64,000 nt of DNA from positions 42,485 through 106,484 of the forward strand of contig LSNK01000002.1 of assembly GCA_003056085.1 (NCBI GenBank), given 5' to 3'. The translations under genes were made by a program, and so were the position numbers. The notes under the pieces were generated by a model, which saw only the letters and a program-made list of their open reading frames with translations, ran no database searches and was not told the origin of the DNA. Below, piece by piece: positions 28,555-46,800 of this stretch (the first letter of the stretch is position 1; each line of letters begins with the position of its first letter). Source of the stretch: Parcubacteria group bacterium M6-OD1-1 (GTDB taxonomy: Bacteria > Patescibacteriota > Minisyncoccia > GWC2-36-17 > M10-OD1-4).

Positions 28555-28566
28555 TAATCTCGAACA

Positions 28567-28607: not shown

Positions 28608-28610
28608 AAA

Positions 28611-29550: not shown

Positions 29551-29683
29551 AGATAGTTTCCTCCTTTATTGTTAAAGTTCTTTTTTTAAAAAAATCAATC
29601 CAAAAAATTTGACATTTTTTTATTCATATTACATACTCAATTTATTAGCACATTAAAAACCAAAAAACAAGGAGATTGCCGTT

Positions 29684-30409
29684 ATGAACCGCCTATCAGA
29701 TGAAGAAAAATTGGTTAAAAAACATAGATTATTGGTAAAAAATATAGCCTATAAAATATCATTAAAACTGCCAAAAAGCATTGCTCTTGATGATCTTATT
29801 CAAGATGGCATGATCGGACTTTTAGACGCTGCTAAAAAATATGACTCTTCTCTTGGGTCATCATTTGAAACTTACGCCAGCATACGCATTCGCGGAAACA
29901 TACTTGATGGATTGCGCAACAGCAATATTCTTCCAAGAGGAATCATTCATCTTTCTCAAAAAATAAAAAAAGCAGAAGAAAAAGTTCAAAACAAAAAACT
30001 AAGACCCATCACAAATAGTGAAGTAGCAAAAGAAATGGATATTCCAATAAAGGAATTTCATAAAATACTAAATGACATTCAACAAGGCAACATGATATCA
30101 ACTGAAAATTCACGATTTACCAATGACTCAAAAGGAAGATCAGTTCTTGACTGGTATGAAGACAACAACTTCAATCCGGAAGTAATTTTAGAAATAGAAG
30201 AATTCGTTGACTCATTAAGCGCATTCGTAAAGTCATTACCGGAAAGAAAACAGGCTATTTTCACATTGTCTGAAATAGAAGGTTTAAGCGAAAGAGAAAT
30301 AGGAGTACTGTTTGGTATATCAGAATCAAGAGTAAGTCAAATCTTAGCTAAAGTACGAAACGAATGGAAAGCGGAACAATTTGCAGCAAACTTAAAACTG
30401 ATTGTTTGA
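29684..30409 (+). CDS. Sigma-70 family sigma factor (FliA/sigma-28-like group 3) with a strong SD (AAGGAG) 10 nt upstream
   Basis: Region 2 FETYASIRIRGNILDGLR; region 4 LSEREIGVLFGISESRVSQILAKV. Confidence 0.85.
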   Translation: MNRLSDEEKLVKKHRLLVKNIAYKISLKLPKSIALDDLIQDGMIGLLDAAKKYDSSLGSSFETYASIRIRGNILDGLRNSNILPRGIIHLSQKIKKAEEKVQNKKLRPITNSEVAKEMDIPIKEFHKILNDIQQGNMISTENSRFTNDSKGRSVLDWYEDNNFNPEVILEIEEFVDSLSAFVKSLPERKQAIFTLSEIEGLSEREIGVLFGISESRVSQILAKVRNEWKAEQFAANLKLIV

Positions 30410-30420
30410 TAAACAAATCC

Positions 30421-30458
30421 AAAGCCCCTCGTTGCCTTAAGGCAACGAGGGGCTTTTT
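30421..30458 (+). terminator. Terminator: 16-bp perfect stem aaagcccctcgttgcc-ttaa-ggcaacgaggggcttt plus T5
   Basis: Read directly. Confidence 0.75.
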
Positions 30459-30475
30459 CATTCTCCCATAGATTC

Positions 30476-30498
30476 TCCCATAGGTGTCACCTATGGGA
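30476..30498. repeat. REP-B copy 1 (tcccataggtgTcacctatggga), preceded by a partial duplication ctcccatag
   Basis: Palindrome family cccataggtg[W]cacctatggg. Confidence 0.8.
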
Positions 30499-30534
30499 AT
30501 TCCTTGTTCGAGGTTCAACCTCGAACAAGGAATT
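30498..30534. repeat. REP-A copy 2 (37-nt palindrome aattccttgttcgaggttCaacctcgaacaaggaatt), directly abutting REP-B1
   Basis: Read directly. Confidence 0.8.
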
Positions 30535-30535
30535 T

Positions 30536-32161
30536 TTATTTTTTCAAAAGAAGTCTCGCAACTCTCAGCTCATCAAAAGAAAAATCACGACCAAGTATGT
30601 CACGAACAGGCACAAGCTTTGTGTCTTTTGTTTTTAAAAAAGCATTTTTTATCTCCTTTAGTCTGCTTTTTTTAAACTCCGCCTCCAAATATTTTAAATC
30701 CAACTCCTCCCCACCTGCTAAAATCTTTTCCAAATACCCCACAACTGTCCTCTCTTTTATACCTCTTTTTTCTGCAATTTCAGAAATAGAAAGTTTTTTT
30801 TCAACAAGCAGTTTAGTTTTTTTTAGCGTGGAAACATTTTCTTTTTCAGTTTTTTCAACCTTGCCCAAAAATTTATTCAGTTTATCTTTTTTTTCTTCAT
30901 CATCTAACTTCTTAAGCTCGCTTAAAGCTTTCTCTGACGCCTCTTTCAGCTCTTTGTCTAAAAAAAGCGCTTCTTCATTAACTTTAAGAGCCATATTATT
31001 AAGTCCCAAAAGCTTAAGCCCGGAAAGTGAAGAAACGCGCGATAAAGCGACATAGCCCATCCCTTCTACAAATGATCTTGAAAGATCTATTTCAGCGGCG
31101 TCCAAAGTCATCCCTTGGCTTTTGTGTATGGTTATCGCCCAAGCTAAACGCAAAGGTATTTGCCTTACCTGCGCTCGAACTTTCCCATCTTCCTCAACGC
31201 TCCACTCCGCCGGCTCCGCCAATATATTTTTTCCGCTGAAAGTTTTTACCAAAGGCAATCCGGAATCGGAAAATCCAATAACCTCACCAAGCGTTCCATT
31301 GGCATATCCGGTATCAAAATTATTTTTCGTAAACATTACAAAAGCCCCCCTCTTCAAGATAAGTCTTTCAGGCGAAAGACAGCTGTTTTTTAAGCTTTCC
31401 GAAAGCTTTTTATTTCCGGAAAGCTGCATTTGGTAGGACTTTGCCGTCTCAGATATCTTCCTAAGTTCTTTCTCATTAACTCTATCCACATCAAAATTAT
31501 GCGTATGAAGTTTTGTCGCAACAGAACTTTCAACAACTCCATCAAACCTTTTTTGTAAAATATCAAGAGTATTTTTCCTAATTTCTCCGGAGCGAATATC
31601 CTCAAGTACTCCCAGAAGCTCATCTTTATTTTGACGATGCTGTTCACTTAAATAACAAACCTTCAAGTCCATACCGCTCCAAACCTTGGATTTGTTTATA
31701 AAATCCGCTTTTTTACTGCCTTGGCTGATGGGAGGCAGCTGAAAAAAGTCCCCGCAAAGCACAACCTGTAAACCGCCAAACGCAAGATTATTTTCAAAAA
31801 AAGCCTTTAAAACCTCATCCACCAAATCCAATCTAAAAGAGTGAAGCATAGAAACCTCATCAATTATCAAAACTTTAGTTTTTTTAAAACGCCGCGCAAC
31901 TTGCGGTTTTTTAAGCACCTTAAAAACCTCCTCGGGAGAAAGAAAATCACGGATACCAAGCCCGGACCAGGAGTGAATAGTCATCCCGTTCATATGAGTT
32001 GCGGCAACTCCGGTTGAGGCGGTAACTCCAACCCCGACTTTATTTTCTTTTAAAAATTTAATGTATTTATTCAACACAAAAGTCTTCCCGCTCCCGGCAG
32101 AACCCGTCAAAAAAACATTATGCCCCATTTTCAAAATTTCAAGTGTTTCTTTTTGCGTCAT
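30536..32161 (-). CDS. PIF1/RecD-family DNA helicase with a C-terminal HTH domain. The start is taken at MTQKETLEIL; the track start lies inside the REP-adjacent C-run.
   Basis: VFLTGSAGSGKTFVL, VTASTGVAATHMNGMTIHSW, LIIDEVSML, ...ITIHKSQGMT. Confidence 0.8.
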   Translation of the reverse strand: MTQKETLEILKMGHNVFLTGSAGSGKTFVLNKYIKFLKENKVGVGVTASTGVAATHMNGMTIHSWSGLGIRDFLSPEEVFKVLKKPQVARRFKKTKVLIIDEVSMLHSFRLDLVDEVLKAFFENNLAFGGLQVVLCGDFFQLPPISQGSKKADFINKSKVWSGMDLKVCYLSEQHRQNKDELLGVLEDIRSGEIRKNTLDILQKRFDGVVESSVATKLHTHNFDVDRVNEKELRKISETAKSYQMQLSGNKKLSESLKNSCLSPERLILKRGAFVMFTKNNFDTGYANGTLGEVIGFSDSGLPLVKTFSGKNILAEPAEWSVEEDGKVRAQVRQIPLRLAWAITIHKSQGMTLDAAEIDLSRSFVEGMGYVALSRVSSLSGLKLLGLNNMALKVNEEALFLDKELKEASEKALSELKKLDDEEKKDKLNKFLGKVEKTEKENVSTLKKTKLLVEKKLSISEIAEKRGIKERTVVGYLEKILAGGEELDLKYLEAEFKKSRLKEIKNAFLKTKDTKLVPVRDILGRDFSFDELRVARLLLKK

Positions 32162-32180
32162 AATTTTATTTCCAACCCCC

Positions 32181-32211
32181 CCCATGTTCGAGGTTCAACC
32201 TCGAACATGGG
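32181..32211. repeat. REP-A copy 3 (cccatgttcgaggttCaacctcgaacatggg)
   Basis: Read directly. Confidence 0.8.
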
Positions 32212-32225
32212 AAAATTGAATTAAA

Positions 32226-35200
32226 TTAGAATTTTTGAGCGGACCACAAAATAAAAGATATATTCCCTGCAATTTCCGCACCTTTGCCGTCTAAATTTAA
32301 AGCGTTATTAAATGGACCTGACTCTTCTCCCCACCAATTGTTTTTTGCACTTATAGGTAAAGATCCTCCACCTCTTACCGTGTATTTACTGATTATGCTT
32401 GGATAAATATTTGAATTAGAAATTGTAATCTTAGACTCTCCTTGAGTATAAAGACTTTCATTTGAAATATTTTTAAATTCTGAATTTAATATAACAACCT
32501 CTCCATCATCTAAGGCAACTATACCTCCTGTATTTTCTTCAAAAACAGTATTAGACATCTCTATACTTCCCCCTCTTGCGAAAATAACTGCCGACTGAAA
32601 AGACCCTTGTAAAGAAAAATTACCTCCATAAGAAAATACAACATTATCAAAAACTGCTATCTTGCTTTTTTCTGTGATGTTTAAAGCCCCCCAAAGTCCG
32701 GCTCGATAACCATTTTCCTCCGTATTTGGAGTTGATAAAGCTGTAAAATATATTTTATTTTCTTTTGTTCCTACAGCTTCTATTTCGCCATTAATTACAA
32801 ATACAGCATTTTGCATCATACTCAAGGTTACCCCGGAAGCTATTGTTAGTTTAGCATTCTCGCCAACACTTAACCAATCAATAACATAGGGAATATCTTT
32901 TTCAAATACAAAATCATCATCAATATTTGCTAAAATTCTTACTCTGCTTTTTTCATCAAAATCATTATCTAAAATAGTCAATCTGCTTCCAATATTCCCT
33001 CTTATAAAAATATTATCCTTATCTCCCTCAAAATTATTTTTTTCTATCTTGAACTCAGAAGTTGTTGCAGTTTTTAAATAAATATCAATAATATTTCCGG
33101 AAAAATTATTTTCTGAAATAACAGAAGATGACTTTTGATCGCCTGCATATATACCATATCCATTGAATTCTCTATTGGAATAAACATTTGGTTCTGTATT
33201 TTTAATTTCACAACCGGATATTTCAGGATAAGAATTTTCTTCTATATTTATTCCGAACGCTTTACTTTCTTCAATTCTACAATTTAAAATTTTAGGACTT
33301 GAATTTTTAATATACAAAGAACCTTTATAATCATCTGAAGAATACCTATTTGAAGCTCCCCCATATCTTATAATAACATTTTCCAAAACAGAATTAGATG
33401 CTTCTTCTCCAAATATTTTAATATTTCTCCACATACCTGACTTTGTTTCTACATCCTGTTTGTCGCTATTATATCCATCCACCTCATCATCTGATATATA
33501 TGTAAAAATAATTTTTTCTTCTTTTGTTCCTTTAGCGCTTAAAGTTCCGTATACAATGATTGGAGTTACTAAAGAATCTTGATAATTCCTATTCCGAGAG
33601 GACTTAATAACGACCCCGGGATCAATTTCAAGCTCTCCGCCTTTTTGAATCGTTATGCTTGACTCCACAATGTACGACATATCATTTTTTGAAAAAATTG
33701 CTTTTGTGCTTGAAGCTATCGCGCCAGCTATATATATCCCGTCTTCTTTATTTTCATCTTTATTATTTTTTATCTTAATATTAAAAGAATTTGAATATAT
33801 GTCTATATTTCTTTCGTTTCCGGAAAAAATATTATTTTTTATTATCAATGGAGTACTTGATGCTGATTTAGAAACTATACCTTTGTTATTATTTTCAAAA
33901 ATACTATCCAAAATTTCTGCTGTTGAACTTGCATCTTTTATATAAATTCCATATCCGTTTTGCGCTTTGTTGTTTATGTAGCTTGCATCAGTATTCTTTA
34001 TAGAACAATTTGCTATTTTGGGGTTCGAACCATCTTTTATATAAATTCCATATCTACTCGAATTATCAATAACACAATTTTCTATTTTTGGACTTGAGCT
34101 GAATACACTTAAAGCGCCCTCGGACACAAAACTCATCTGAAATCTTTTTGCCGCTCCTCCATATTTTATTTGAATATTTTTCAAAACTGACTCCTCTCCT
34201 GTATTTTCGAAAACTATCCCTCTCCAATCTCCAAAAACAGGCTCTCTATTTTCCAATTGGTCAGAATTAACTCCGTCTGCTTCATCATCAAAAAATGAAG
34301 TAAATATTATATCTTCATTTTCCACTCCTTTAGCATCTAAAATTCCATTTACCAATAAAAAAGACTCTGTATTTTGATTTGACTTTACACCTCCAAACTT
34401 AACTGTCACTCCCGGCTCTATGATTAAAGTTACACCTTTTTGAATAGCAATTCCATAATTTATATAATAAGGACTCGCTTCTTTTGACCAAAAAGTATCT
34501 TTTTCTATATTTTTACCTATATGTGTATAAAGCCCTGAAACGCTATTCTTTCTTCCTGGAGTCCCCAAAATTTCATTTTCTGAAGCATCTTTTGCAAAAA
34601 CATCACCAGAAAAATCAAGCCAGTTTAAAGCATCGTCACCTTCTGAATAAACACTGACACGCTCCATTGTTCTTTTTTCTGAATTATCACCGGCATGCCA
34701 CTTATTTGTAAAATCAATTAAATCTCCTTTATTATCTCTTAAAAATAAATCCGATCCCAACCCAATATTATTCATAGCTCCGGTATAAAGTTGATTTTCT
34801 TTAATGTCAGTCGTTGTGCTTGCTGTTCTTTCAAGTAGATAATATCCTTTCGGCTCTATCACACCGGTAAGTTCAATAGAAAAATTTTTTGAATTTTTAA
34901 GAGTCCAACCGGAAAGATTTATTTCATAGTCCATTTTATTGTAAAGCTCTATCCACTCATCACTTGAGTCTGCACTTGTCCCCATCCATGCAATTTCATT
35001 TATAACCACCGGGACTTTATAAGACAAAAACTGCATTAAAGCCCAATTTGATTCTATCTTATTTTCTATATTTTTTGCCTTTACCCGAAAAATATATTTT
35101 ACATCATCTCCTGTTGTTAAAAACTCAACTGTCGTTGAGCTTGTTTGATCCTCTATATCCTGCCAATCCTCTTGAAAATTTGTTTTATATTGCAAATCAT

Positions 35201-37028
35201 AAACTATACTTTCTGTACTTGAGGCATTCTCAAATTCCGCTCCAAAACTTAAGACCACTTTCTTTTTACTAACATCATAACTGCTTAATATTAAAAATGG
35301 ATCTCCTAAAACTAAAATCTTTTTAGTCGAAGATGCTATTTTATCAAGTACATCTTCAGTAGAGGATGCTATTTCTCCTGCGAGAACACTCTCCGTTGAC
35401 GATGCTATTTCGTTAATTATATTTTTGGTTGACGACGCTGTATCTTCAGCTAAAACATCACCCATTGGATCTTCTTTTTGTTTTTCAACTTCAATAACCA
35501 AACCGGCAGAGGCGCTGGCCGAACCACCGGAAAAAACAGGTACCACATTAACACCACCCAAAAAATTAGCTGGCACCTCCACAATATCATATTCACTCTC
35601 CACCACTTCATCCTTAGTCACCACTTCAACCTCATCATTCTCCACTAAAACACTTTCATCCCCCACTTTAACATCGTCTTCCACCACTTTAGTCTGAGTA
35701 GTTTCTTGGGTTAATGGTAACGCTTCGGGAACAAGAACATCAAAATCAACTTTCGGAGCGCTCTGTTTGGCGTCTTTTGCACTCTCAACCACTACATCTA
35801 TAATCTTCTCATTAATAATTTTAGAATCTTCTTTTTGATTTTTATTAACTTCTAATAAAACATTATTTTTTACATTATTTTGAGTGTTGTTTGGAAAAAT
35901 AGAAATAAAACTCGCAGATAATTTACTATTCATGTTACTCGCGAAACTTTTAACACCATCAAAAATATCAATAGCTTCATCTTTAATATTTTCAACAACT
36001 TTTACAATTAAACTTTTATTTTTATTATATAAAGCAAATGTTTGTTTTTCTTTTTTAACCTCTTTAAAAAATAACTCAATCACACCGGCACCGTGTAAAA
36101 CAGCTTGCTTGGAAAGAAGATTCCAATAATCATTTAAAATTAAATCATCGTAATCTTTCAAAGAATATAAATCTTCAAAATCAAGTATCGCAAAATTAAA
36201 TTCTCTTTTAATTTTAACAAGTAAGTAGTTGTCTTTATAAAGAAATCTATAACTTTTTCCATCACTTAACAAAATTTCTTTTTCATTTTTGTTTATAACT
36301 GGCTCAATAAATATATCATTATTTATTGTATTCCTACTAAAAAAGTTATTATTTGAATAATTAGCAATACTATCAAAATATTCATCCAAAGAATTTAGTT
36401 TTATCTCTTCTTGACCTTCCAACTTACTTGCAATATCTATAGTTGATAAACTAAATTTTTTAGCCCAATTTTCATAAATACTTCTTTGATGAAAAACAGA
36501 ATCTAAAATTGGAGGATGAGCATCATTTCTTGTATGCGCAGGAACGGACGCATCTTCAATTAAGTGTAAAATATGTCCTAAAGATTTCATTGCCCTTTGT
36601 CTATCTCCATAAACATACTCATAAATAGCTCTGTCCCAGGAAAAATCAGAACCAAAACTAAAATAATCACGCAACAAATTGAAAAGACCTGCCTGACTTT
36701 TTGATAATGAAGCCTGCTTTTCCGTGCTTTGTGCCCAGATTTTTGAGGTAACACCACCTTTCATGGCTTTATTATTAATTGGATCATAAAAATGATTTAA
36801 AGCTCTTGTCCCTGGACTATCTTCATCTACGCTCCCCTGCATAATATTAATCTCGTCATTCTTACTAATTTTTTCAGGATATTTACTTTTATAAAATTTT
36901 ACCATCTCTTGAGTTAGCCCTCTATGTGTAGTTTCCGGACTGTAAGCATACAAAAAAACAGGAATAGTAAAAAATATTATTCCCACAAAAACATATTTTA
37001 TTACATTTATAAGCTTTCTATTTTCCAT
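32226..37028 (-). CDS. Giant (1600 aa) secreted/surface protein: zinc-dependent phospholipase-C/P1-nuclease-like domain, a Ser/Thr-rich linker with ASSTE repeats, a lamin-tail domain, and multiple right-handed parallel beta-helix (PbH1) repeats
   Basis: N-terminal TM/signal; HLIEDASVPAHTRNDAHP; VINEIAWMGTSADSSDEWIELYNKMDYEINLSGWTL; repeated NCxIxNS..YGIYI.D/ISGCEIKNT motifs. Confidence 0.75.
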   Translation of the reverse strand: MENRKLINVIKYVFVGIIFFTIPVFLYAYSPETTHRGLTQEMVKFYKSKYPEKISKNDEINIMQGSVDEDSPGTRALNHFYDPINNKAMKGGVTSKIWAQSTEKQASLSKSQAGLFNLLRDYFSFGSDFSWDRAIYEYVYGDRQRAMKSLGHILHLIEDASVPAHTRNDAHPPILDSVFHQRSIYENWAKKFSLSTIDIASKLEGQEEIKLNSLDEYFDSIANYSNNNFFSRNTINNDIFIEPVINKNEKEILLSDGKSYRFLYKDNYLLVKIKREFNFAILDFEDLYSLKDYDDLILNDYWNLLSKQAVLHGAGVIELFFKEVKKEKQTFALYNKNKSLIVKVVENIKDEAIDIFDGVKSFASNMNSKLSASFISIFPNNTQNNVKNNVLLEVNKNQKEDSKIINEKIIDVVVESAKDAKQSAPKVDFDVLVPEALPLTQETTQTKVVEDDVKVGDESVLVENDEVEVVTKDEVVESEYDIVEVPANFLGGVNVVPVFSGGSASASAGLVIEVEKQKEDPMGDVLAEDTASSTKNIINEIASSTESVLAGEIASSTEDVLDKIASSTKKILVLGDPFLILSSYDVSKKKVVLSFGAEFENASSTESIVYDLQYKTNFQEDWQDIEDQTSSTTVEFLTTGDDVKYIFRVKAKNIENKIESNWALMQFLSYKVPVVINEIAWMGTSADSSDEWIELYNKMDYEINLSGWTLKNSKNFSIELTGVIEPKGYYLLERTASTTTDIKENQLYTGAMNNIGLGSDLFLRDNKGDLIDFTNKWHAGDNSEKRTMERVSVYSEGDDALNWLDFSGDVFAKDASENEILGTPGRKNSVSGLYTHIGKNIEKDTFWSKEASPYYINYGIAIQKGVTLIIEPGVTVKFGGVKSNQNTESFLLVNGILDAKGVENEDIIFTSFFDDEADGVNSDQLENREPVFGDWRGIVFENTGEESVLKNIQIKYGGAAKRFQMSFVSEGALSVFSSSPKIENCVIDNSSRYGIYIKDGSNPKIANCSIKNTDASYINNKAQNGYGIYIKDASSTAEILDSIFENNNKGIVSKSASSTPLIIKNNIFSGNERNIDIYSNSFNIKIKNNKDENKEDGIYIAGAIASSTKAIFSKNDMSYIVESSITIQKGGELEIDPGVVIKSSRNRNYQDSLVTPIIVYGTLSAKGTKEEKIIFTYISDDEVDGYNSDKQDVETKSGMWRNIKIFGEEASNSVLENVIIRYGGASNRYSSDDYKGSLYIKNSSPKILNCRIEESKAFGINIEENSYPEISGCEIKNTEPNVYSNREFNGYGIYAGDQKSSSVISENNFSGNIIDIYLKTATTSEFKIEKNNFEGDKDNIFIRGNIGSRLTILDNDFDEKSRVRILANIDDDFVFEKDIPYVIDWLSVGENAKLTIASGVTLSMMQNAVFVINGEIEAVGTKENKIYFTALSTPNTEENGYRAGLWGALNITEKSKIAVFDNVVFSYGGNFSLQGSFQSAVIFARGGSIEMSNTVFEENTGGIVALDDGEVVILNSEFKNISNESLYTQGESKITISNSNIYPSIISKYTVRGGGSLPISAKNNWWGEESGPFNNALNLDGKGAEIAGNISFILWSAQKF

Positions 37029-37603
37029 ACTTTATTATTTTTTAAAAATATAATTGTATTACTAATTTTTTCTCCAGCAGGTATTGTAAATATAACATTA
37101 CCATCCTCATCCATTAATGGCTTTGTTTTTTCTACTATGTATTCTAAAATATAAACCATATAATCATCTGAATTTAAGGAAGAATTGGATTTTATTAATA
37201 CAGATTTTTCTAACTGATTAATCTTTACTTGCAACTCATTATTCTCTTTCCCAACCTTAAATTGCTCAGCCATTTGCTGCTGCTTCTCCACAATAAAATA
37301 TTTAGCCGCCAATTCTGTGTTCCCAGCTTTTAAAGCATTAATAAAAAGCTGTAAAGTCTCTTTCGGAGTACTTCCACCATATGTATCTTTCTCATACTCT
37401 TTTTTTAATCCTTCATAATATTCTAAATATTCTTTTTGAGAAGAAAATCCAATATTTTCTGAAGGTATAAATTCTTCTTTTGTTATACTTTCTAAAAAAA
37501 CAAATATCAATCCTCCAACTATTAATAACAATACAAAAACTATTGATATTATTTTGATCTTTAAATTTTTAATAATTTTCTTTTTCTGTATATTCTCTTT
37601 CAT
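37007..37603 (-). CDS. Membrane-anchored hypothetical protein (198 aa)
   Basis: N-terminal TM; overlaps the giant gene start by 22 nt. Confidence 0.45.
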   Translation of the reverse strand: MKENIQKKKIIKNLKIKIISIVFVLLLIVGGLIFVFLESITKEEFIPSENIGFSSQKEYLEYYEGLKKEYEKDTYGGSTPKETLQLFINALKAGNTELAAKYFIVEKQQQMAEQFKVGKENNELQVKINQLEKSVLIKSNSSLNSDDYMVYILEYIVEKTKPLMDEDGNVIFTIPAGEKISNTIIFLKNNKVWKIESL

Positions 37604-37704
37604 GTCCTTTAAAATTAATATTTAATATTTATTTAAAATTAGTTATATTATTTAAAATTAATATCAATCCCAAAACATCATTACTCCCATCTATATTCGA
37701 TGTC

Positions 37705-37731
37705 TATGTTCGAGGTTCAACCTCGAACATA
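37705..37731. repeat. REP-A copy 4, immediately downstream of the RAYT-1 stop
   Basis: tatgttcgaggttCaacctcgaacata. Confidence 0.8.
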
Positions 37732-37752
37732 TAAAAGATATTTGATTTTTCT

Positions 37753-38448
37753 TTATTCCAATATTAAATCTTTTAAAAATTTCTCATTATTTTTCCCTAT
37801 CCAATTTCTTATAAATTCCATCATTTCCTCATTATTTTTCCAATAATTAGGAAAAGTTTCCTTGTTAATTATTTTATCTGAAAAATCATCTTTTAAATAA
37901 TTTTTATAACTTGACCATTTATATCCCTCTATAAACTTAATTGCATCATCAATATTTAAAATTCCATTTTCCTTCCATTTTGACTCCACCAAATCCAGTG
38001 GATTTATATGAATATATACAAATAAATGCCTCAAATACTCATCCTTGCTAATATGAACAGCTTTAAATCTTCCCTCAAACAAAGATCCCGTTCTTTTATT
38101 TTTTTTATTAAAATACATAGTGTATCCAGTGCCAAGCTTTCTCATGAACTCAGTGATTCCTCCCTCTTTATTTTCCCTAATCAATAAATGAAAATGATTT
38201 GGCATAAAGCAATACAAAACAACATCAACTAATTTTTCTTGATCCCCTCCCATCCCAAGGTCTTCATGTTCGAGGTTCAACCTCGAACATGAAGACCTTG
38301 TAAGTTTTGAAGGCTTATTAGAATTAAACTCTCTAAGTCCTAATTTAAATCTTTCATAAAATTTCGGACCTAAAAAAATATTGCGCTTGTCAACACCTCT
38401 ATTATATATATGATAGTATTCTCCTTGTTCAAATTTATGTTTTCTCAT
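37753..38448 (-). CDS. REP-associated tyrosine transposase (RAYT, IS200/IS605 TnpA Y1 family), paralogue 1; carries an in-frame REP-A copy inside the ORF
   Basis: YHIYNRGVDKR, HuH motif MPNHFHLLI, catalytic-Y region GSLFEGRFKAVHISKDEYLRHLFVYIHINP; colinear with E. coli TnpA_REP (HMHCIW...QPRFWEHAIRNTKDYRHHVDYIYINPVKHG). Confidence 0.8.
   Translation of the reverse strand: MRKHKFEQGEYYHIYNRGVDKRNIFLGPKFYERFKLGLREFNSNKPSKLTRSSCSRLNLEHEDLGMGGDQEKLVDVVLYCFMPNHFHLLIRENKEGGITEFMRKLGTGYTMYFNKKNKRTGSLFEGRFKAVHISKDEYLRHLFVYIHINPLDLVESKWKENGILNIDDAIKFIEGYKWSSYKNYLKDDFSDKIINKETFPNYWKNNEEMMEFIRNWIGKNNEKFLKDLILE
38257..38301. repeat. REP-A copy 5: 45-nt perfect palindrome caaggtcttcatgttcgaggttCaacctcgaacatgaagaccttg located inside the RAYT-1 coding sequence (codes ...RLNLEHEDLG...)
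   Basis: Read directly. Confidence 0.8.
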
Positions 38449-38490
38449 AATATTTTATTATCATTATTCCCCTCCTATGCTCTACCCTTT

Positions 38491-38515
38491 ATGTTCGAGG
38501 TTGAACCTCGAACAT
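38491..38515. repeat. REP-A copy 6, immediately upstream of the RAYT-1 start
   Basis: atgttcgaggttGaacctcgaacat. Confidence 0.8.
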
Positions 38516-38526
38516 GGGAGATTTTT

Positions 38527-40614
38527 CTATTTAATTTTTCCTTCTTTTATGTCTTTAATAAATTGAGTAGCACGAGCTCTTTCCTTCGGGAAAAGCTCTA
38601 TTATTTTTTTAGTGGTTTTTATGGCTCTTTCTTCCTCGCCCATTTTTGCAAAAGCGACAGCCACGTCTATATATTGCTTCGTTGAGAGCTTTCTTGTATT
38701 TAAAATATTATTATAAACATCTATGGATTTTTGTTTTTGACCAAGTTTTGCATAATTAAACGCGAGCGTCATTTCAAATTTAAGACTACCCGTAAGTTCT
38801 GCCGCTTTTTTTAAGTTTCTAAGCGCTTCTTCATTTTCTCCCAAAAGAGCCTTTATTCTATACCTTTGAAGATACAAAGTTGGTTTTTGCGGAGCAAATT
38901 CCAAAGATTTTTCCAAAACTTTGTCGGCTTCCAAAAGAAGATCTCTGTTTTCTCTATCCACCGCTGCCATACTTGAAAGAAATAGATAATATCTAAAATT
39001 ATCCGGCTCTTCTTTTGCTGTTTTTCTTAACTCTTCTTCAGTTTTATCAAAAAATCTCCTTTTTTGTTCTTCCGGCATATTTTTTATTTTTGTGATTTTC
39101 TGAGCGTATTCAACCATCCTTGAACGCATTTCAGGCTTTCCCATAAGAGCTGTTTCTAAAGATTTCTCAAAATATCCCAAAGCTTCATCTGACCTTGAGG
39201 GATGCAGCTGTAACGCCTGGATGCCAAAATAAGAAGACTGAGCGGGTTTGACATTGAAGCCATAGATCAAAAAACCCAAAATAACAATAAGCAAAACAGC
39301 CGGTTGTATCGGAATATTTGCTTTTTTGTCTGCAATTTCCTCTTTTTCTGATGTTAAAAATACAAAAAATGCGAGTAAAAAGAAAAATGATAAATAAGTA
39401 ACCAAACTGTCAAAAACAAATATATTTTGGAAAAAATAAGCAAAAAGCAAAGCCATAAAAAGATAACTCACAAAGAAATTATCTTCATTTTTCCTCCTGT
39501 ACTGCAAAAGCAAATAGATAGCCGCGGCAAATATAGCCAAGTAACTTAAAAGACCCACAAAGCCGGCTGAAGACAAAGTGTCAAAAATTATATTATGCGC
39601 ATGATCAAACCAACTCTCTGCCGGATAAAGTCTTGGGTCATAGTATTTGTCAAAAATCAAATTGTAATTTTCCATTCCCCAACCCAAAACAGGATGCTCT
39701 TTAACCCCTTCCCAGCTTACACCGGCTGACAAAATTCTTGTTTTTGTGGTTGAATCTGTTAAAGATATGGAAGTTAATCTTTTTATAGGCTCCAAAAACG
39801 CATTTGCATTAAACAAAGCCAATATCAAAACCAAAAATAACCCCTTCAATATCCAATTAAATATTTTATTTTTTGCAGGATTAAGCCATTCTTTCAAATT
39901 TGATTTGTTTTTAAAGAAAAATGCTCCGCCCAAGAACAAAAATGACGCTAAAACGCCCAAAATAGCCCCTCTTGTTGAACTTAAATACAAAGCCAACAAA
40001 CTCACAAATAAAGAAACTCCATAAAAATATTTGAACTTATTTTTATCCGAAAACAGCAAAAACATCGCGAAAAAAGCATTAAACATCATATAAGCCGAGA
40101 AAAATGCGGCGTTTCCTATTGTGGCGTCTATTCTATTGGTCCCGGAGTTATATAAAAAAGAAAATCCTATTTTTTGTCCAAGCCCATACAAACCGACGAT
40201 AAAACCTGCCGCCAAAAAAGACCTGAAAAGAAAAATCCAATCTCTTTTTTTTAAAAATATAGATTTTGCAATCAAAAAAAGCGCCACAAAATGCGCTAAA
40301 TTAAAAATCCCCAGCATCCTTTCAAATGTTCCAAAAAAACTTCTAAAAATATTTTCTCCAAAAATTGCAGCTATAGTAAAAACGCCAAGAAAAACCAAAA
40401 CACTCTTTGTCAGCACATCAAACTTAGGAAGATAAGATTTATTTGAAATCGCTAAAATAATATATAAAAACAGCGCCACCTCTATCAAAACCTGAAAAAC
40501 CAATGTTTTAGGAACTATAAATGGAAAATAAAACTGATCCAAAACAATAAGAGGAGTGAAAAAAGACGTCGCAATAATCCATTTTATTATATTTACGATG
40601 GTTGATTCTTTCAT
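38527..40614 (-). CDS. O-antigen ligase-like (Wzy_C) polytopic membrane protein fused to C-terminal TPR repeats, paralogue 1
   Basis: LSSTRGAILGVLASFLF motif in a roughly 12-TM domain; C-terminal TPR-like helical repeats; about 50% identical to the neighbouring gene. Confidence 0.7.
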   Translation of the reverse strand: MKESTIVNIIKWIIATSFFTPLIVLDQFYFPFIVPKTLVFQVLIEVALFLYIILAISNKSYLPKFDVLTKSVLVFLGVFTIAAIFGENIFRSFFGTFERMLGIFNLAHFVALFLIAKSIFLKKRDWIFLFRSFLAAGFIVGLYGLGQKIGFSFLYNSGTNRIDATIGNAAFFSAYMMFNAFFAMFLLFSDKNKFKYFYGVSLFVSLLALYLSSTRGAILGVLASFLFLGGAFFFKNKSNLKEWLNPAKNKIFNWILKGLFLVLILALFNANAFLEPIKRLTSISLTDSTTKTRILSAGVSWEGVKEHPVLGWGMENYNLIFDKYYDPRLYPAESWFDHAHNIIFDTLSSAGFVGLLSYLAIFAAAIYLLLQYRRKNEDNFFVSYLFMALLFAYFFQNIFVFDSLVTYLSFFFLLAFFVFLTSEKEEIADKKANIPIQPAVLLIVILGFLIYGFNVKPAQSSYFGIQALQLHPSRSDEALGYFEKSLETALMGKPEMRSRMVEYAQKITKIKNMPEEQKRRFFDKTEEELRKTAKEEPDNFRYYLFLSSMAAVDRENRDLLLEADKVLEKSLEFAPQKPTLYLQRYRIKALLGENEEALRNLKKAAELTGSLKFEMTLAFNYAKLGQKQKSIDVYNNILNTRKLSTKQYIDVAVAFAKMGEEERAIKTTKKIIELFPKERARATQFIKDIKEGKIK

Positions 40615-40645
40615 TTTTTATTTTAGAGTTTATGCGTTCAATGGT

Positions 40646-40676
40646 TACCTCCCATAGGTGTCACCTATGGGAGGTA
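40646..40676. repeat. REP-B copy 2 (tacctcccataggtgTcacctatgggaggta) between the two Wzy-TPR paralogues
   Basis: Read directly. Confidence 0.8.
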
Positions 40677-40691
40677 AAGGAAAATTTTATT

Positions 40692-42809
40692 TTATTCTAT
40701 TTTGAAATTTCCGTTCAAAAACCTGCCTTTCTCAATCTCCTTTATAAACAATGGTCCGTCAGACTTAAAATCAGGGTTATTTTCCATTATTTTCTTTATT
40801 ATTGTTATTGCTTTATCATTCTCCCCCATACTTGCCAATTCAACCGCAATAGTAATTTGTTTTTTTAAATCTATACCGCCTCTTTCAAAAATCTTTTCTA
40901 AAAGCTCAATTGACGCCTTAGTATCTCCTATTTTTCTGTAACTTGACGCCAAAACAATACTTATATCAGGATCATAATACAAATCCATAGCTTGTTTTAA
41001 TTCACTAAGCGCCTCTTCATTTTTTCCTAAAAGAGCCTTCACCCGATATTTTTGAAGGTGTAGTGTTGGTTTGTTTTTAGCGAGTGGAGTAATCTTATCT
41101 AAAGCTGCGTCTATTTCTTTTAGAAGCTCCTTGTTCTCTCCGTCTATAAATGCCGCATTAGTAAAGTATGAATAATACCTAAAATTTTTCGGCTCTTCGG
41201 AAATCGCCTCTCTTGCCCTCTCTATAGTTTTTTTTGCAAATCTTGTTTTTGCGTCACCTGATATATTCTCATTACGCGAAAGATTTATAGCGTAATCCAT
41301 CATTCTTGAGCTTATTTCAGGCTTCCCCTGTAATGCAAAATCAAATGCCTTTTTAAAATTCTTAAGAGCATCATCAGAATAATTAGGAGATGTAATTATA
41401 GCATTAGTTATGTAGTGAGCAGCCATAGCCGGCTTAATATTAAAAAAATAAACAACAGCTATAAGCGTAATCAGTAAAACCCCAAAAGAGGCGGGGTTGA
41501 TGCCGGACTTATTACCGGTATACGTGCTTTTTTCTCCTGTTGATAAAAATCCAACAAATGCCAATAAAATAAAAAATGGCAAATACGTAGCAAGCGCATC
41601 AAATACAAAAAGATTTTGAAGAAAATAAGCCAATATTAATGCCATAAAGATACGACTGACAATAAAGTTTTCTTCTTCTAATTTTCCATAACAAAAAAGC
41701 AAATAAATAACAACTCCCAAAAGAAATAAATAACTTAAAAGCCCAAATGCTCCGGCAGAAATTAAATTATCAAATATTATATTATGCGCATGATCAAACC
41801 ATTCTTCTGCAGGATATAGTCCCGGATCATAATATTTATCAAAAACCAAGTTGTAGTTTTCAGGCCCCCACCCCAACAAAGGACGCTCCAAAAAACCATT
41901 CCAACTCACTCCTGCCGCCAAGATTCTTGTTTTTGTCGTTGTGTCATTAAGCGATATAGAACCTATTCTTTTTAAAGGATCTAAAAGAATATCTTTATTA
42001 ACAAAAAATAAAATAATAATTATTGCAAAAAATCCAAAAATCCAAGCCAATCCTTTATTACTCTTAATGTTTGAAAATTTTATATTCTTCCTATTATGCA
42101 AAAGCCAAGCACCGGCTAAAAATAAAAATGCGAAAAAAGCCCCTAAAATAGCTCCTCTGGTTTCACTTAAATAAATACCTAAAATACCAATAATAAATGA
42201 AAATTTATAAAAATAATTAAAAAATTTACTTCCTCTGTCAATAAACATTAAAGCCATTGCGAAAAAGGTGTTAAATATCATATAAGCGGCAAAAAAAGCG
42301 GCGTTTCCTATAGTTGAGTCTATTCTGTTTGTCCCTTCATTATACAAGGAAGAAATACCAAGCTTTTGTCCAAATCCATAAAGCCCTACAATAACACCAG
42401 CAAATAAAAATACTCTGAAAAGCTTTATCCAGTCTTTTTTATTTGTAAATACAGCTCTGAGTATAAAAAATAAAACAACAAAATGCGCTAAATTAAAAAC
42501 CCCGAGCATCCTTTCAAATGTTCCAAAAAAACTTCTAAAAACATTCTCTCCAAAAATCCCTGCTATTAAATAAACCCCGAAAAAAAGCAAAACTGATTTT
42601 GCCAAAATATCCATTTTTGGTAAATATGATTTGTTGGATATCACTAATAAAATATAAAAAAACAAAGCCACTTCTATCAAAACTTGAAAAAAGATAGCTT
42701 TTGGAACTATAAATGGAAAAAAGAAATAATTAACTATAAGAATTGGAGCAAAAAATGAGGCAAATATTAATCCTTTTATTATTTTTAAATTTAAGACTTC
42801 TCCTATCAT
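40692..42809 (-). CDS. O-antigen ligase-like (Wzy_C) membrane protein with C-terminal TPR repeats, paralogue 2
   Basis: LSETRGAILGAFFAFLF; same architecture as 38527..40614. Confidence 0.7.
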   Translation of the reverse strand: MIGEVLNLKIIKGLIFASFFAPILIVNYFFFPFIVPKAIFFQVLIEVALFFYILLVISNKSYLPKMDILAKSVLLFFGVYLIAGIFGENVFRSFFGTFERMLGVFNLAHFVVLFFILRAVFTNKKDWIKLFRVFLFAGVIVGLYGFGQKLGISSLYNEGTNRIDSTIGNAAFFAAYMIFNTFFAMALMFIDRGSKFFNYFYKFSFIIGILGIYLSETRGAILGAFFAFLFLAGAWLLHNRKNIKFSNIKSNKGLAWIFGFFAIIIILFFVNKDILLDPLKRIGSISLNDTTTKTRILAAGVSWNGFLERPLLGWGPENYNLVFDKYYDPGLYPAEEWFDHAHNIIFDNLISAGAFGLLSYLFLLGVVIYLLFCYGKLEEENFIVSRIFMALILAYFLQNLFVFDALATYLPFFILLAFVGFLSTGEKSTYTGNKSGINPASFGVLLITLIAVVYFFNIKPAMAAHYITNAIITSPNYSDDALKNFKKAFDFALQGKPEISSRMMDYAINLSRNENISGDAKTRFAKKTIERAREAISEEPKNFRYYSYFTNAAFIDGENKELLKEIDAALDKITPLAKNKPTLHLQKYRVKALLGKNEEALSELKQAMDLYYDPDISIVLASSYRKIGDTKASIELLEKIFERGGIDLKKQITIAVELASMGENDKAITIIKKIMENNPDFKSDGPLFIKEIEKGRFLNGNFKIE

Positions 42810-42908
42810 TTTATTTTAAAATTAAGTTAAACAATCCAACAAAGTTAGGTTGGATGAAAAAAATTTCTATTTATTAGTTAATTATACATCAAATATTTAG
42901 AATATCAA

Positions 42909-43613
42909 TTAATCTATCCCATAGGTGACACCTATGGGATCTTTGGAATAATTAATCCAAAAGTTTACAAAGTCATCAAATTCATTCTTATTATTGAAAT
43001 AATCAGGAAAAACCTCTTTATTTATAATCTTGCCTTCTGTCCTGTGTTTGTCTGTATAATCAGGATAGCTGGACCAAGAATATTCGTCTAAATATTTTCT
43101 TATTTGGCTTTGGTTAGAAGAATTTTTTAACTTATTTTTCCAATCAATATCCATTATTTTAACCGGATTAAGATGTATATAAGCAAATAAATATTTAAGA
43201 TACTCATCATTGTCCACATGAGATGACTTAAACGCTCCTTCAAAAAGACTTCCGACTCTCTTGTTCTTTTTATTAAAATACATTGAATAAGCAGTGAGTA
43301 TTTTTTTCATAAATAAACTTATTCCACCATCAATTTTCTCTTTAATAAGCAAATGAAAATGATTTGACATAAGACAATACGCGCCTACATCAACAATCGT
43401 ATCACCTCTATTAAATTTAAAAACATCAGAGACAGCAAATCCATTCATAAATAAATCTCTTATCGTTATGTTTTTTGTGGTATTACAAAGATACAATAAA
43501 CAAATAAACCTAAAATGATCTTTAGGCTCCATAAAAATAATTCGCTTATCTACTCCCCTGTTGTAAATATGATAATACTCACCTGGAGCAAATGATACTT
43601 TTCTGTTTCCCAT
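42909..43613 (-). CDS. REP-associated tyrosine transposase (RAYT), paralogue 2; the 3' end of the ORF is formed by a REP-B copy
   Basis: YHIYNRGVDKR, HuH motif MSNHFHLLI, GSLFEGAFKSSHVDNDEYLKYLFAYIHLNPVK. Confidence 0.8.
   Translation of the reverse strand: MGNRKVSFAPGEYYHIYNRGVDKRIIFMEPKDHFRFICLLYLCNTTKNITIRDLFMNGFAVSDVFKFNRGDTIVDVGAYCLMSNHFHLLIKEKIDGGISLFMKKILTAYSMYFNKKNKRVGSLFEGAFKSSHVDNDEYLKYLFAYIHLNPVKIMDIDWKNKLKNSSNQSQIRKYLDEYSWSSYPDYTDKHRTEGKIINKEVFPDYFNNKNEFDDFVNFWINYSKDPIGVTYGID
42916..42940. repeat. REP-B copy 3 (atcccataggtgAcacctatgggat), overlapping the RAYT-2 C-terminal codons (DPIGVTYGI)
   Basis: Read directly. Confidence 0.8.
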
Positions 43614-43643
43614 AGCCTAAATTATACCATAATTCTCAATTCT

Positions 43644-43664
43644 ACATAGGTGACACCTATGGGA
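43644..43664. repeat. REP-B copy 4 (degenerate: acataggtgAcacctatggga) just upstream of the RAYT-2 start
   Basis: Read directly. Confidence 0.65.
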
Positions 43665-43690
43665 TGATGTTTGTGTTGTGTGTACACACA

Positions 43691-43729
43691 CAAAAACCCC
43701 GATCTTATAAAAAGAATCGGGGTTTTTGC
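43691..43729. terminator. Terminator aaaccccgat...atcggggttt flanked by A/T runs (3' of the large surface-protein gene)
   Basis: Read directly. Confidence 0.6.
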
Positions 43730-43800
43730 TTGCCTATTTTAAAGGCTTAGTCCCTACCTAACTTATAACTTAAAGTTAGGAAAGTACAAGACGGTTAGAC

Positions 43801-46800
43801 TTAGTCAAGTGAGTAAGAATCCGTTGGAATTCCTACAACCTTGTAATCGTTAAACCAGTCTGTAGTAGTTAGACTATGACTTGATGCAGATTTATCAGAC
43901 CAAATAAATGATCCTCCAGCACCTGCCAAACCTGACGTATATGCTGCTGCATTACTATGTGATGTACTTCTGTTTGAAATTGAAGTTTGTACATACGCAC
44001 TTGAGTCGATAGTACCACCGACAGTTGCCTTCAAGCTATAGGTCTTTGAGCCACCTGCTCCAATTTCCTGAGCACTTGTAGGAACTACCCTAATTGTACT
44101 TGTTGCATACTGTATTGTTGCTGTATCCGTAGGAACTAAAGTTGTTCCTTCGTAAAGCGCAATACTACTCAATGTAAGAGCGGTAGAAGTACTGTAGTTA
44201 AACAATATTTCTTTCCATGCGACAGTACCATTTGTGTCTGCAGATACTATGAACTTACCGATTGTCTGTGTTCCAGAACCAACCTGTAGTCCTGTTGAGA
44301 CATCTGCAGTAACCGTAGGAACTGTTTTAACAACATATTGAGCATTTCCTGAAACTGCAGGATATGCTGTTGTTGATGAACCAGTTCCATCTGATACTTT
44401 ATAACTGTTTAATGTAACTTTTACATTTAAATCAGTTGTTGCTGCTCCTACACCAACATCCGCCAATTGAAGATATACATCAACAACCTTGTCTTGATTT
44501 GCAGGAACTGAGAAACCAATTCCAGTTGATGTTGTTGCGTAGAAACCGTTAAACGGTTGCGTAGCAAGCGTTTTTCCAGAAGTATCCTTGAAGATTACAT
44601 TTTGAATTACATTTTGCGAACCTGATGCGACAGATGCTCCAAGTTGATCGATTGTGTAGTTTTGATTTGTTGAAGTAAATTTGAATGCTCCAACTTTAAC
44701 AGTATTATTTGCAACGTTAAGCGCAATAGCAGGCTTTGAAGCGTCCGCTGCAACAGCGAATGTTCCTGTTCCTATTGTCATTGTTTGTCCTACTGTTGCT
44801 CCAGCTGTTACAGATTGCCCTGAACTAACAGTTGTTCCGGCAAATGTTAAGCTTGGAATTACACTTTCTCCAGAAGTTATATCAGAAGAAAGATCGGCAT
44901 ATACTGCAACATTTATAGTTGTATTTGCAGAAAGCGTCTTACTTATAGACCATGACTGTGAATTTGCGCCTGATGCTTTTACAGAAGTTGTGTCTGGTCC
45001 GTACACAACATACAAATTAGTTATGTCTGTTGAAGTAGCGGAGAAACCTGTACCATTGTTATTCAATGTAAGAGTAATGGTATTAAGTGTTACATCTTCT
45101 GTGTCATCGGCTGTTAGTCTAAATTCACCAATCTTGTAAGCTGTCTGAGGAACAACTACTGTCTGTCCTGCATATGCTGTGTACTTAGCAAGACTCATTG
45201 AGCCTGAAACAACGGTTACAGTATTTGCAGTTGCTGCTGCAGAGCTTATATATCCAAGGGAAGATACTTGCTGAACATTTGAAGATCCTACCACAAGTGA
45301 AACCTGAAGAGTTTCATTTGCAACAAGACCATTTATTCCATCATCATCAAAGACGTCAGCCCTCACCTCAAGAGTTACAGGAGAACCAGGATTAACTATA
45401 AGAGATGAACCAAATGAATATTTAGTTCCAGCTGCAGCACCTTCTAAAGAAGCTGTGCTTCCAACCTGAACTCCATTTGCAAATAATGCTCCATTTCTAA
45501 GTGTCATTGTTGTACTTGCTGAACCATCATTTGTAACAGTTGCATACAAGTTTTCAATCTTCATAGATTCTCCAGCTGCTTTAAGTTCAAATTTAGCTAA
45601 AGTAACACCTGTTGCATTAAGAGTAACATCACCTGAAGGTGAGTCTGATGTTTTTGTTATTGTAAGAGTTCCTGAAGAAATACTCTGTGTCCCAGATGAA
45701 CGAGCACTGAATGTTGTGCTATTTGCCTGCGCAAGAATATTTGCTCCGTAGTCTTTGTCTACAACATCAACATCGGCTGTTTGTCTAAGTGAGAACAAGA
45801 AATTTCTACTTGAACCTCCTACGACATCACCAACCATTTTTATGGTTCTATTTCCTGTTTTAAGTTCAATAGGACTTGTTGATAAATCAAATGTCACATA
45901 TCCGTTAGCATCTAACTGTGCTACTGTATTTCCAACTTTTACTCCGTCAACAAAAAGCTCAAAATTAGCAAGGTCAGCAGTTTGTACAGACCCTATCATT
46001 CTAAGTCTGAATGATTTTAACATTGCGCTTCTTGTTCCGATAGCTACAGTATTTTTCCACATTATAAAATCATCTTGTGGTTGAAGACTTGTATTTGTTG
46101 CTGGTGTTGTTGTTGTGTTGAAACTAACTGAAGCAAGCGTAGCTGTTGCTACTGTATGCAAGTTTCCTGAAACTGGAAATGTTCCTGAAATTGCAGCGTC
46201 AGATGCAACGCCAGCAAGTGCTACTCCAACTGTCTGTCCTGATGTTCCTGTTGCGATGTCTGATTTAACAGTGATTGTTACACTTGAATTTGCAGGTACT
46301 GTTAAGATTCCTGCGCTATTTACAAAAGTAATAACACCTGAAGAAACAGTTGCGGAATCAGTTAATCTACTTATTCCATCAAACAAATAAACATTACTTA
46401 ATGTTGTATCTGCTGATACACCTATTCTATTAAGTGTTACTTTTGTAACTTTAGCATCTGTTGCTGTAGAATTTGTTAAAGTAAAGTGCGCAAGATCAGC
46501 TATTGACTGCCCTGCAATAAGAGTTCCTGAAGCTGGATTGTCGGATGCTAATGATACTGAAACCTCTGCGACAACTGGAGGTGTTGGAGTTGTTGTTACT
46601 ACTCCATAAACAGATCCTGTTGCGTAATAGTTAACTTCTCTTTCATTAACTGTAAAGATTTGGTCCCAGCTGTAACCTCTTGAATTGAAAGCTTCTACGC
46701 TCGCAATGTGATGTTTAACAGCTGATGATCCTTGTTCCTCAAGAGAGTAAACTCTTGGGTCAACGTCTGCCTTATAAAGGTCAGATGTTTCGTACGCGTC

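Follow-up and report, generated by a model that had tools for sequence, protein, structure and literature searches.

Why should a gene carry, in frame and within its own coding sequence, the palindromic repeat that also brackets it? The question is raised by a stretch of 64,000 nucleotides (the window) from contig LSNK01000002.1 of Parcubacteria group bacterium M6-OD1-1. One of its two genes related to the REP-associated tyrosine transposases (RAYTs; REP, repetitive extragenic palindrome), denoted RAYT-1, contains a 45-nt perfect palindrome. The explanation that we favour, with a probability of about 0.62, is that this palindrome is the third copy of the hairpin predicted to be recognised by the enzyme, residing in a linker slot that is used throughout the clade and kept in concert with the copies flanking the gene. 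The linker is a recurrent hairpin slot across the clade, not the site of a unique event in this genome.

The palindrome is formed by two 22-nt arms (38256–38277 and 38279–38300), 100% complementary and separated by a single nucleotide (22+1+22). Read in the frame of the gene, it yields T50-RSSCSRLNLEHEDL-G65, residues 51–64 lying between the two partly encoded ones, and the HuH (histidine–hydrophobic residue–histidine) motif H85-F86-H87 is situated 21 residues downstream of this segment. An earlier note on this DNA had described a 45-nt perfect palindrome within the RAYT-1 open reading frame (ORF), the longest copy of its repeat family, with the frame continuing through it upstream of the HuH motif. 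All of this is confirmed, save that the coordinates given there, 38257–38301, were one base off: the 231-aa ORF is intact, and the arms of 22 nt exceed those of the other copies of the repeat (family A), 12–18 nt. The predicted fold of the palindrome has an energy of −43.2 kcal/mol as RNA (z-score −7.9) and −25.3 kcal/mol as DNA (z-score −9.0). On the sense strand, the hairpin is not followed by a T-tract, hence there is no intrinsic terminator at this place.

The 25-nt core of family A, ATGTTCGAGGTTNAACCTCGAACAT, occurs six times in the window and has no match in 100 shuffles, which excludes chance. The identical palindrome is present in an independent assembly with 99% identity (L003, GCA_003056185.1) and in a metagenome contig (L094), hence it is not an assembly artefact. 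RAYT-1 also keeps every residue that is invariant in its family. With the shuffles, the two other assemblies and the intact ORF with its full set of invariant residues all speaking against it, the explanation by coincidence of conserved coding, by artefact or by decay of a dead gene has a negligible probability.

The palindrome falls in a linker of about 30 aa between the N-terminal strand–helix unit and the HuH strand, and a linker of similar length is present in all 120 homologues. The spacing between the YH-x-x-x-RG and NHFH motifs is 59–86 aa, mostly 65–70, and 72 in RAYT-1; the linker is equally long whether the hairpin is present or absent. The paralogue, RAYT-2, is aligned to RAYT-1 through the linker with a gap of 2 aa only. 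A net insertion of about 15 aa relative to the paralogue is thus ruled out, the linker being no shorter in RAYT-2 or in any of the homologues. In the AlphaFold2 model of RAYT-1 (mean predicted local distance difference test score, pLDDT, 87.9; predicted template modelling score 0.86), the block-mean pLDDT drops to 54 for residues 51–60 and to 49 for residues 61–70, with values below 50 at residues 58–68, and the palindrome-encoded segment is a tolerated loop modelled with low confidence.

These data revise the earlier note in several respects. Its statement that RAYT-2 lacks an equivalent segment does not hold, and the alignment of orthologues that it proposed reveals no net insertion; the structural check that it proposed for a surface loop did return a loop. 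Its reading, that a REP had inserted without destroying the gene or that the protein tolerates the loop, is retained as regards the in-frame repeat copy, the intact ORF and the loop, and abandoned as regards the net insertion and the uniqueness to this genome. Finally, the note expected its reading to fail if orthologues with no REP nearby carried the same segment as conserved coding sequence. The segment does occur at the same position, but what is found there is each genome's own hairpin and not a conserved coding sequence.

The last point follows from comparison of related loci. P0002 (locus L001), which at 63% identity is the closest orthologue, has an imperfect palindrome of another sequence, GAGGAAGTCCGACTCCCTC, situated just upstream of the gene, within the same linker, and just downstream; in a collection of 5.8 billion proteins, there are no orthologues between 63% and 99% identity. 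Since P0002 carries its own hairpin in the same linker, we surveyed 80 genome loci encoding relatives, with flanks of up to 6 kb; these are the loci that matched the query family best, and they are phylogenetically non-independent. The 13-mers that a gene shares with the rest of its locus are concentrated in the linker and around the stop codon. GC-rich hairpins, retrieved by a search for perfect stems, have their centres 62–79 nt upstream of the NHFH codon or no more than about 35 nt from the stop codon, and the stop-side copy often overlaps the last codons. The local folding energy, averaged over 79 genes, is −6.4 kcal/mol at the linker and about −2.3 kcal/mol elsewhere in the gene.

The locus's own hairpin is seen upstream, in the linker and at the stop codon in 31 of the 80 genes, upstream and at the stop codon only in 21, and in other partial combinations in five, while no perfect GC-rich hairpin was detected for the remaining 23. 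The gene is therefore flanked by its own hairpin at both ends in 52 loci, and in about six further genes the linker holds an imperfect copy of the locus's hairpin. Only a single in-gene copy in the entire set lies outside the linker and stop positions. Distant copies are few, 27 over the 57 loci with a detected hairpin, and some of them form doublets about 27 nt apart.

The main rival to our explanation is a one-off selfish insertion: a family-A REP landed near its RAYT and survived in a tolerant loop, with no role and no deeper history. It is difficult to reconcile with the own hairpin occupying the same slot in 31–37 of the 80 genes and with a different hairpin in the 63% orthologue; the near absence of copies elsewhere in the genes and the linker length, the same with and without a hairpin, argue in the same direction.

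The copies at one locus resemble each other far more than those at different loci. In 29 of 30 cases, the 17-mer around the centre of the linker hairpin recurs in the flanks of its own locus with no more than one mismatch, whereas a match in the flanks of other loci is found in 1.3% of comparisons; hence the three copies evolve in concert. All three reading phases are used by the linker hairpins, with 26 of them in phase 1, four in phase 0, and those of RAYT-1 and P0002 in phase 2 (for P0002, this is our own reading of its sequence). In gene pairs with 50–79% amino-acid identity, the third codon positions are mostly saturated (identity 0.22–0.51), and still such pairs, from one subclade, share the 15-mer CAAGGTYNNACCTTG with zero or one change. 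This preservation of the hairpin past synonymous saturation is another argument against a one-off insertion. Synonymous resampling gives p≤0.05 in 21 of the 80 genes, with RAYT-1 being the strongest case (−38.2 kcal/mol against the resampled mean of −17.0); the power of this test over the family is modest, because the E/F, Q/L and K/F codon pairs preserve the palindrome, and the flank-identity and saturation tests are more informative. Taken together, the match to the own flanks, the three phases and the unchanged hairpin despite saturation indicate that the conserved feature is the DNA or RNA hairpin, with the peptide as its passenger.

The opposite possibility, that the encoded loop or a motif within it functions in the protein and the DNA palindrome is a by-product, derives from a weak G-x-S/T motif recurring in the linker of many homologues. 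However, this motif, [QE]G[RS][ST][LF], is the translation of the phase-1 hairpin CAAGGTNNNACCTTG, other hairpins and phases encode unrelated peptides (EVEP, SRLNLE, ERKSDS), and the same DNA recurs in the non-coding flanks. Moreover, the pLDDT in the middle of the segment is the low one given above, and two relatives from outside the Patescibacteria (Collinsella, Rhodospirillum), similar to subclass 2.1 described below, miss the whole linker of about 30 aa. A role of the peptide is thus highly improbable. A practical caution is that what looks like a short "conserved motif" in a linker of this type can be the translation of a DNA palindrome.

The structure of the RAYT-1 palindrome hints at its history. 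After removal of the inner 31 nt (TTCATG...CATGAA), the outer arms with their context read AAA CTT (A) CAAGGTC. GACCTTGG. Among the linker hairpins of the clade, the commonest is CAAGGTC-N-GACCTTG, and it follows AAA CTN (K-L), as in L006, L008, L026, L059 and L066. Hence the outer arms and the preceding K-L codons of RAYT-1 match the common context of the clade, plus one extra base that shifts the frame. Judging by this match, the family-A unit appears to be nested in the apex of the older CAAGGTC/GACCTTG hairpin of the clade. The family-A palindrome with G at the centre has stop codons in the other two frames, and the extra upstream base would shift the frame so that GGT TGA stays unread, placing the palindrome in the sole stop-free frame. 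If so, RAYT-1 may have been caught while one repeat family takes the place of another within a gene. The likeness of the outer arms to the older hairpin speaks against a single insertion with no deeper history. Alternatively, the long form with the outer arms could be a part of the mobile repeat itself, since a copy with similar outer arms, found in the mnmA gene of another organism, makes it uncertain that the arms are a purely local flank.

This copy is one of several outside the RAYT genes. The exact 25-nt core is present in nine metagenome contigs, of which two represent the window organism and the others different low-GC organisms, otherwise dissimilar to the window. In two of these contigs (L087, 254–278, and L091, 387–411), a 43-nt palindrome containing the same 31-nt family-A unit lies in frame in mnmA, encoding tRNA 2-thiouridylase, and is read as SCSR[L/F]NLEHE; the centre base is the one difference between the two palindromes, and their outer arms are CAAAGT/ACTTTG. 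Because of the stop codons in the other two frames, the mnmA copy is read in the same frame as that in RAYT-1. Comparison with an empty-site mnmA ortholog (P0122 in L095, 75% identity) shows that 24 nt have been replaced by 36 nt, with a net gain of 4 aa. In yet another contig (L093, 7886–7910), the core is in frame in an mfd-like gene, encoding a transcription-repair coupling factor; here it is read in a different frame, as QNVRGSTSNIDK, and lies in a loop that we take to be longer than in E. coli Mfd.

Such cases support the one-off insertion, and several observations weigh in the same way against our explanation. In-frame residence in loops is, judging by these sequences, a general habit of the family-A repeat. 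The mnmA case shows that a real insertion may leave little net change of length, which weakens the argument from the missing empty site in the RAYT linker and keeps the passenger view alive. The hairpins coincide with the two parts of the model that have low confidence, namely the linker and the C-terminal tail, as tolerance alone would predict. No linker hairpin is recognisable in about half of the family, RAYT-2 among them, although the genes are intact, and at least one linker copy (L071) looks decaying; hence many lineages can do without the internal copy. The upstream, linker and stop-side copies have no fixed orientation relative to each other: the orientation can be told from the loop base only and flips between close relatives. 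The scenario of nesting with a frameshift needs, by our own arithmetic, about three more small indels to account for the linker length. Finally, a published precedent from another subclass of these enzymes has been interpreted as just such an insertion (PMC6006769). With this evidence on both sides, the one-off insertion is a serious competitor but, in our view, an unlikely one.

Under the preferred explanation, the third copy in the clade-wide slot, the following mechanism may be suggested. Y1 HUH enzymes bind hairpins in single-stranded DNA, as exemplified by the E. coli RAYT (structure 4er8) and IS608. RAYT-1 is predicted to recognise all three copies, upstream, linker and stop-side, and would bind the internal one either as single-stranded DNA or within its own mRNA. 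The slot of each genome would be filled by the genome's own hairpin, and concerted evolution, likely by re-insertion of the repeat into an existing hairpin or by short-patch gene conversion, would keep it identical to the upstream and stop copies; in RAYT-1, the present 31-nt unit would sit inside the stem of the older hairpin. In addition, a very stable hairpin at codons 50–65 might lower or self-limit RAYT expression, similar to the hairpins that control expression of the IS200 transposase.

Whether the internal hairpin acts in cis is a separate matter. As roughly half of the genes in the family have no such hairpin or a decaying one, RAYT-2 being among them, we give a cis-acting role somewhat less than an even chance; otherwise the slot would merely be the one internal site tolerating repeated insertion of hairpins. 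The stronger version, in which the linker hairpin is no passenger but a working cis-site, recognised by the enzyme whose gene encodes it, much like an origin located within a rep gene, is doubtful. Were it true, such a site would lock the enzyme to its site, feed back on RAYT expression, or serve as a protected master copy re-seeding the dispersed repeats. A hint at a master copy comes from the mnmA palindrome, whose outer arms resemble the linker-type stem.

RAYT-1 belongs to the Y1 HUH nucleases of the IS200/RAYT superfamily. The Pfam family Y1_Tnp (PF01797) matches the two RAYT proteins with 32.7 and 35.3 bits at the cut-off of 23, and both proteins have the HuH motif and the class-2 signature Y-x-x-x-N-P (PMC6006769). 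Here these motifs are N84-H85-F86-H87 and Y145-I-H-I-N149-P150; H85, H87, Y145 and N149 are invariant in 121 sequences, and N84, F86 and P150 are conserved in at least 90% of them. The sequence search of PDB with the family profile produced no hits and matches came from the fold search alone. The best one was chain 4er8_A, the E. coli RAYT with REP (E-value 1.7e-5, template modelling score 0.66 normalised to the target), followed by the TnpA proteins of IS608 and ISDra2. The scores with the RAYT equivalog family of NCBIfam (NF047646), 40.3 and 41.3 bits, are below its cut-off of 80; judging by these scores, RAYT-1 and RAYT-2 are distantly related to the canonical, E. coli-type RAYT and are not its equivalogs.

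As to the subclass, the clade features NHFH, LFEG/LFQG, YIH[IL]NP and W-S179-S180-Y, at a length of 218–250 aa. Those reported for TnpA-Y1 subclass 2.1 are NH[YF]H, FQ or W[EQ], Y[IV]HLNP and SS in the tail, at about 238 aa (PMC6006769). Hence, by motifs alone, RAYT-1 and RAYT-2 resemble subclass 2.1, or TIRYT, a relative of the RAYTs associated with terminal inverted repeats (Bertels group 1). No REPs were reported for subclass 2.1 by Quentin et al. 2018 (PMC6006769). Unlike this subclass, which has a C-terminal domain similar to helix-turn-helix (HTH) and no REP-like hairpins, the present clade has clear flanking and dispersed hairpins; the Pfam search of the RAYT proteins found no domain besides Y1_Tnp, and no C-terminal HTH-like domain.

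In-frame REPs within tnpA-REP genes as such are already known, from another subclass and another position. They were published for TnpA-Y1 subclass 2.4 and described as unique to it (Quentin, Siguier, Chandler, Fichant 2018, BMC Genomics 19:475; PMC6006769); this subclass occurs in Cyanobacteria and Bacteroidetes and has the motifs WQ and YIxNNP (PMC6006769). The likeness consists in the cognate REP being both inside the RAYT gene and at its flanks, with the frame kept and the insert in a peripheral variable region of the protein. However, RAYT-1 does not belong to subclass 2.4: its motifs are NHFH, FEG/FQG, YIH[IL]NP and SS, that is, 2.1-like, the host is from the Patescibacteria, and the hairpin is 21 residues upstream of the HuH motif, in a fixed slot of a linker of constant length, with no GTAG foot.

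Rickettsia palindromic elements are short palindromic repeats read in frame within proteins at tolerant sites. REPs inside unrelated genes, often those of repair or replication, have also been described (Di Nocera et al. 2013, PMC3733652). The copies found here in mnmA and mfd are of this kind. In contrast to such scattered sites in unrelated genes, the RAYT hairpin is in the enzyme's own gene, at one position recurring throughout the clade, and co-varies with the flanks.

A general scheme of this sort is the REPtron or TIRtron, in which REPs or inverted repeats bracket the RAYT or TIRYT gene that they belong to (Nunvar 2010, PMC2817692; Ton-Hoang 2012, PMC3333891; Di Nocera 2013, PMC3733652). 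The loci considered here share with it the tight flanks formed by the own hairpin, one repeat family per paralogue, and few dispersed copies, located at gene ends. They differ in having the third, in-frame copy and a stop-side copy that often extends over the last codons, and in the small number of dispersed copies in the flanks examined.

There are HUH initiators whose nick site or origin is in their own gene, such as RepC of pT181 and gene A of phiX174. With these and with IS200, the similarity is in concept only: a recognition hairpin in or beside the own coding sequence links the enzyme to its site and limits expression. The enzyme families and the processes are different.

We found no description of RAYTs or their repeats in the Patescibacteria, or Candidate Phyla Radiation, in the literature searched. 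What is new here is the 2.1-like clade of Patescibacteria, the position upstream of the HuH motif in a clade-specific linker of constant length, the unit of three hairpins evolving in concert, the usage of several frames, and the apparent nesting in RAYT-1. These features bear on the still unsettled problem of how RAYTs recognise palindromic repeats, spread and co-evolve with them. In a clade similar to subclass 2.1, a type said to be free of REPs, a hairpin particular to each genome occupies three fixed positions, of which one is within the coding sequence, and this clade offers dozens of natural enzyme–hairpin pairs for studies of specificity. If the cis-site reading were true, this large RAYT-like clade of the Patescibacteria would be a natural system for RAYT–repeat co-evolution. 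The genomes of Patescibacteria are small and gene-dense, and such genomes may hide repeats within genes such as mnmA and mfd.

The features of the window are listed in the table. It contains six copies of family A and four of family B, CCCATAGGTGNCACCTATGGG, all within about 12 kb of their gene, and each RAYT paralogue is bracketed by its own family, RAYT-1 by A and RAYT-2 by B (43643 and 42918). Canonical REPs run to tens or hundreds of copies per genome; the counts given here cover the 64-kb window. The cores of the upstream (38491), linker (38266) and stop-side (37706) copies are the same save for the centre base. The copies away from the RAYT genes (28530, 30477 with 30504, 32184 and 40651) are intergenic and situated at gene ends.

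Table. Coordinates of the RAYT genes, the RAYT-1 linker palindrome and the repeat copies of families A and B in the window
Feature	Positions	Strand	Comment
RAYT-1 ORF, 231 aa, intact	37753–38448	minus	Y1 HUH enzyme; HuH H85-F86-H87 at 38188–38196; catalytic-type Y145 in YIHINP at 38014–38016
Linker coding region, residues 43–73	38230–38322	minus	between helix A and the HuH strand; clade-specific, sequence-variable, modelled with low confidence
45-nt perfect palindrome, linker copy (L) of family A in RAYT-1	38256–38300	minus	in-frame residues T50 (part), R51 to L64, G65 (part); identical in L003 and L094
Inner 31-nt unit TTCATGTTCGAGGTTGAACCTCGAACATGAA	38263–38293	minus	holds the 25-nt family-A core, 38266–38290; recurs in frame in mnmA of another organism
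Outer arm CAAGGTC (gene strand)	38294–38300	minus	partner GACCTTG at 38256–38262
Family A, upstream copy (U)	38491–38515		42 nt upstream of the RAYT-1 ATG; centre base flipped relative to L and S
Family A, stop-side copy (S)	37706–37730		22 nt downstream of the RAYT-1 stop codon
Family A, dispersed intergenic copy	28530–28554		
Composite intergenic cluster	30477–30534		family B (30477–30497) abuts a family-A palindrome (30498–30534, core at 30504); between convergent gene ends
Family A, dispersed intergenic copy	32184–32208		between two minus-strand genes
RAYT-2 ORF, 234 aa	42909–43613	minus	47% identical to RAYT-1; linker of the same length, without hairpin
Family-B palindrome, stop-side copy (S) of RAYT-2	42916–42940		encodes DPIGVTYGI near the RAYT-2 C-terminus
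Family B, upstream copy (U) of RAYT-2	43643–43663		29 nt upstream of the RAYT-2 ATG; 2 mismatches
Family-B copy	40645–40677		between two tandem Wzy_C/TPR paralogues

The earlier note regarded the family-B palindrome at the end of RAYT-2 as a mirrored case, supplying the last codons and the stop context. It does encode the C-terminal DPIGVTYGI, while the stop codon itself (42909–42911) is outside, 4 nt beyond the palindrome.

When the U, L and S copies were compared for a constant orientation to each other, as for IS200-type ends or inverted REPs, no consistent pattern emerged. Neither GTAG nor GTGG is present at the foot of the family-A and family-B stems; a CCCAT/ATGGG motif recurs instead. 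CTCCCAT or CCCAT (ATGGGAG on the other strand) is located 0–18 nt from the foot of the family-A copies at 32184, 37706, 38266 and 38491, and also forms the outer stem of family B. This motif might be the counterpart of the canonical GTAG foot of REPs. The hairpin tips of the relatives share the form RAGG-N5-CCTY. The composite A+B cluster is reminiscent of a bacterial interspersed mosaic element (BIME). Among the surveyed loci, L044, L036 and L055 have much longer palindromes at the stop codon, with arms of 18–21 nt, and the one in L044 consists of two inverted copies of the hairpin, similar to a REPIN, a hairpin-forming REP doublet.

On the plus strand of the window, antisense to RAYT-1, the internal (38256–38310) and upstream (38488–38528) hairpins are trailed by T-rich tails, and such T-tailed hairpins score as terminator-like (four sites found, 0.3 expected). 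The search for known RNA families in the region 27000–45000 of the window yielded nothing reaching the gathering score.

Two differences between the window and L003 were observed. In L003, a 16-nt partial duplication of the 3′ arm (GAACCTCGAACATAGG) is found beside the stop-side family-A copy (37690–37706 in the window; alignment columns 860–875), which suggests local instability at the repeat. Further, two tandem paralogues encoding Wzy_C/TPR membrane proteins of 705 and 695 aa lie between RAYT-2 and RAYT-1 in the window (38527–42809), whereas L003 has a single hybrid gene (2014–4104), with the first 300 nt or so matching the gene for the 705-aa protein and the rest that for the 695-aa protein; the single gene results either from a deletion by recombination between the two paralogues or from their collapse in the assembly.

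Finally, an upstream ORF of nine codons (MIIKYYEKT*; 38446–38475, minus strand), with a GGAGG Shine–Dalgarno sequence 6 nt before its ATG, overlaps the start codon of RAYT-1, the latter having no obvious Shine–Dalgarno sequence of its own. This may be a leader or coupling arrangement.

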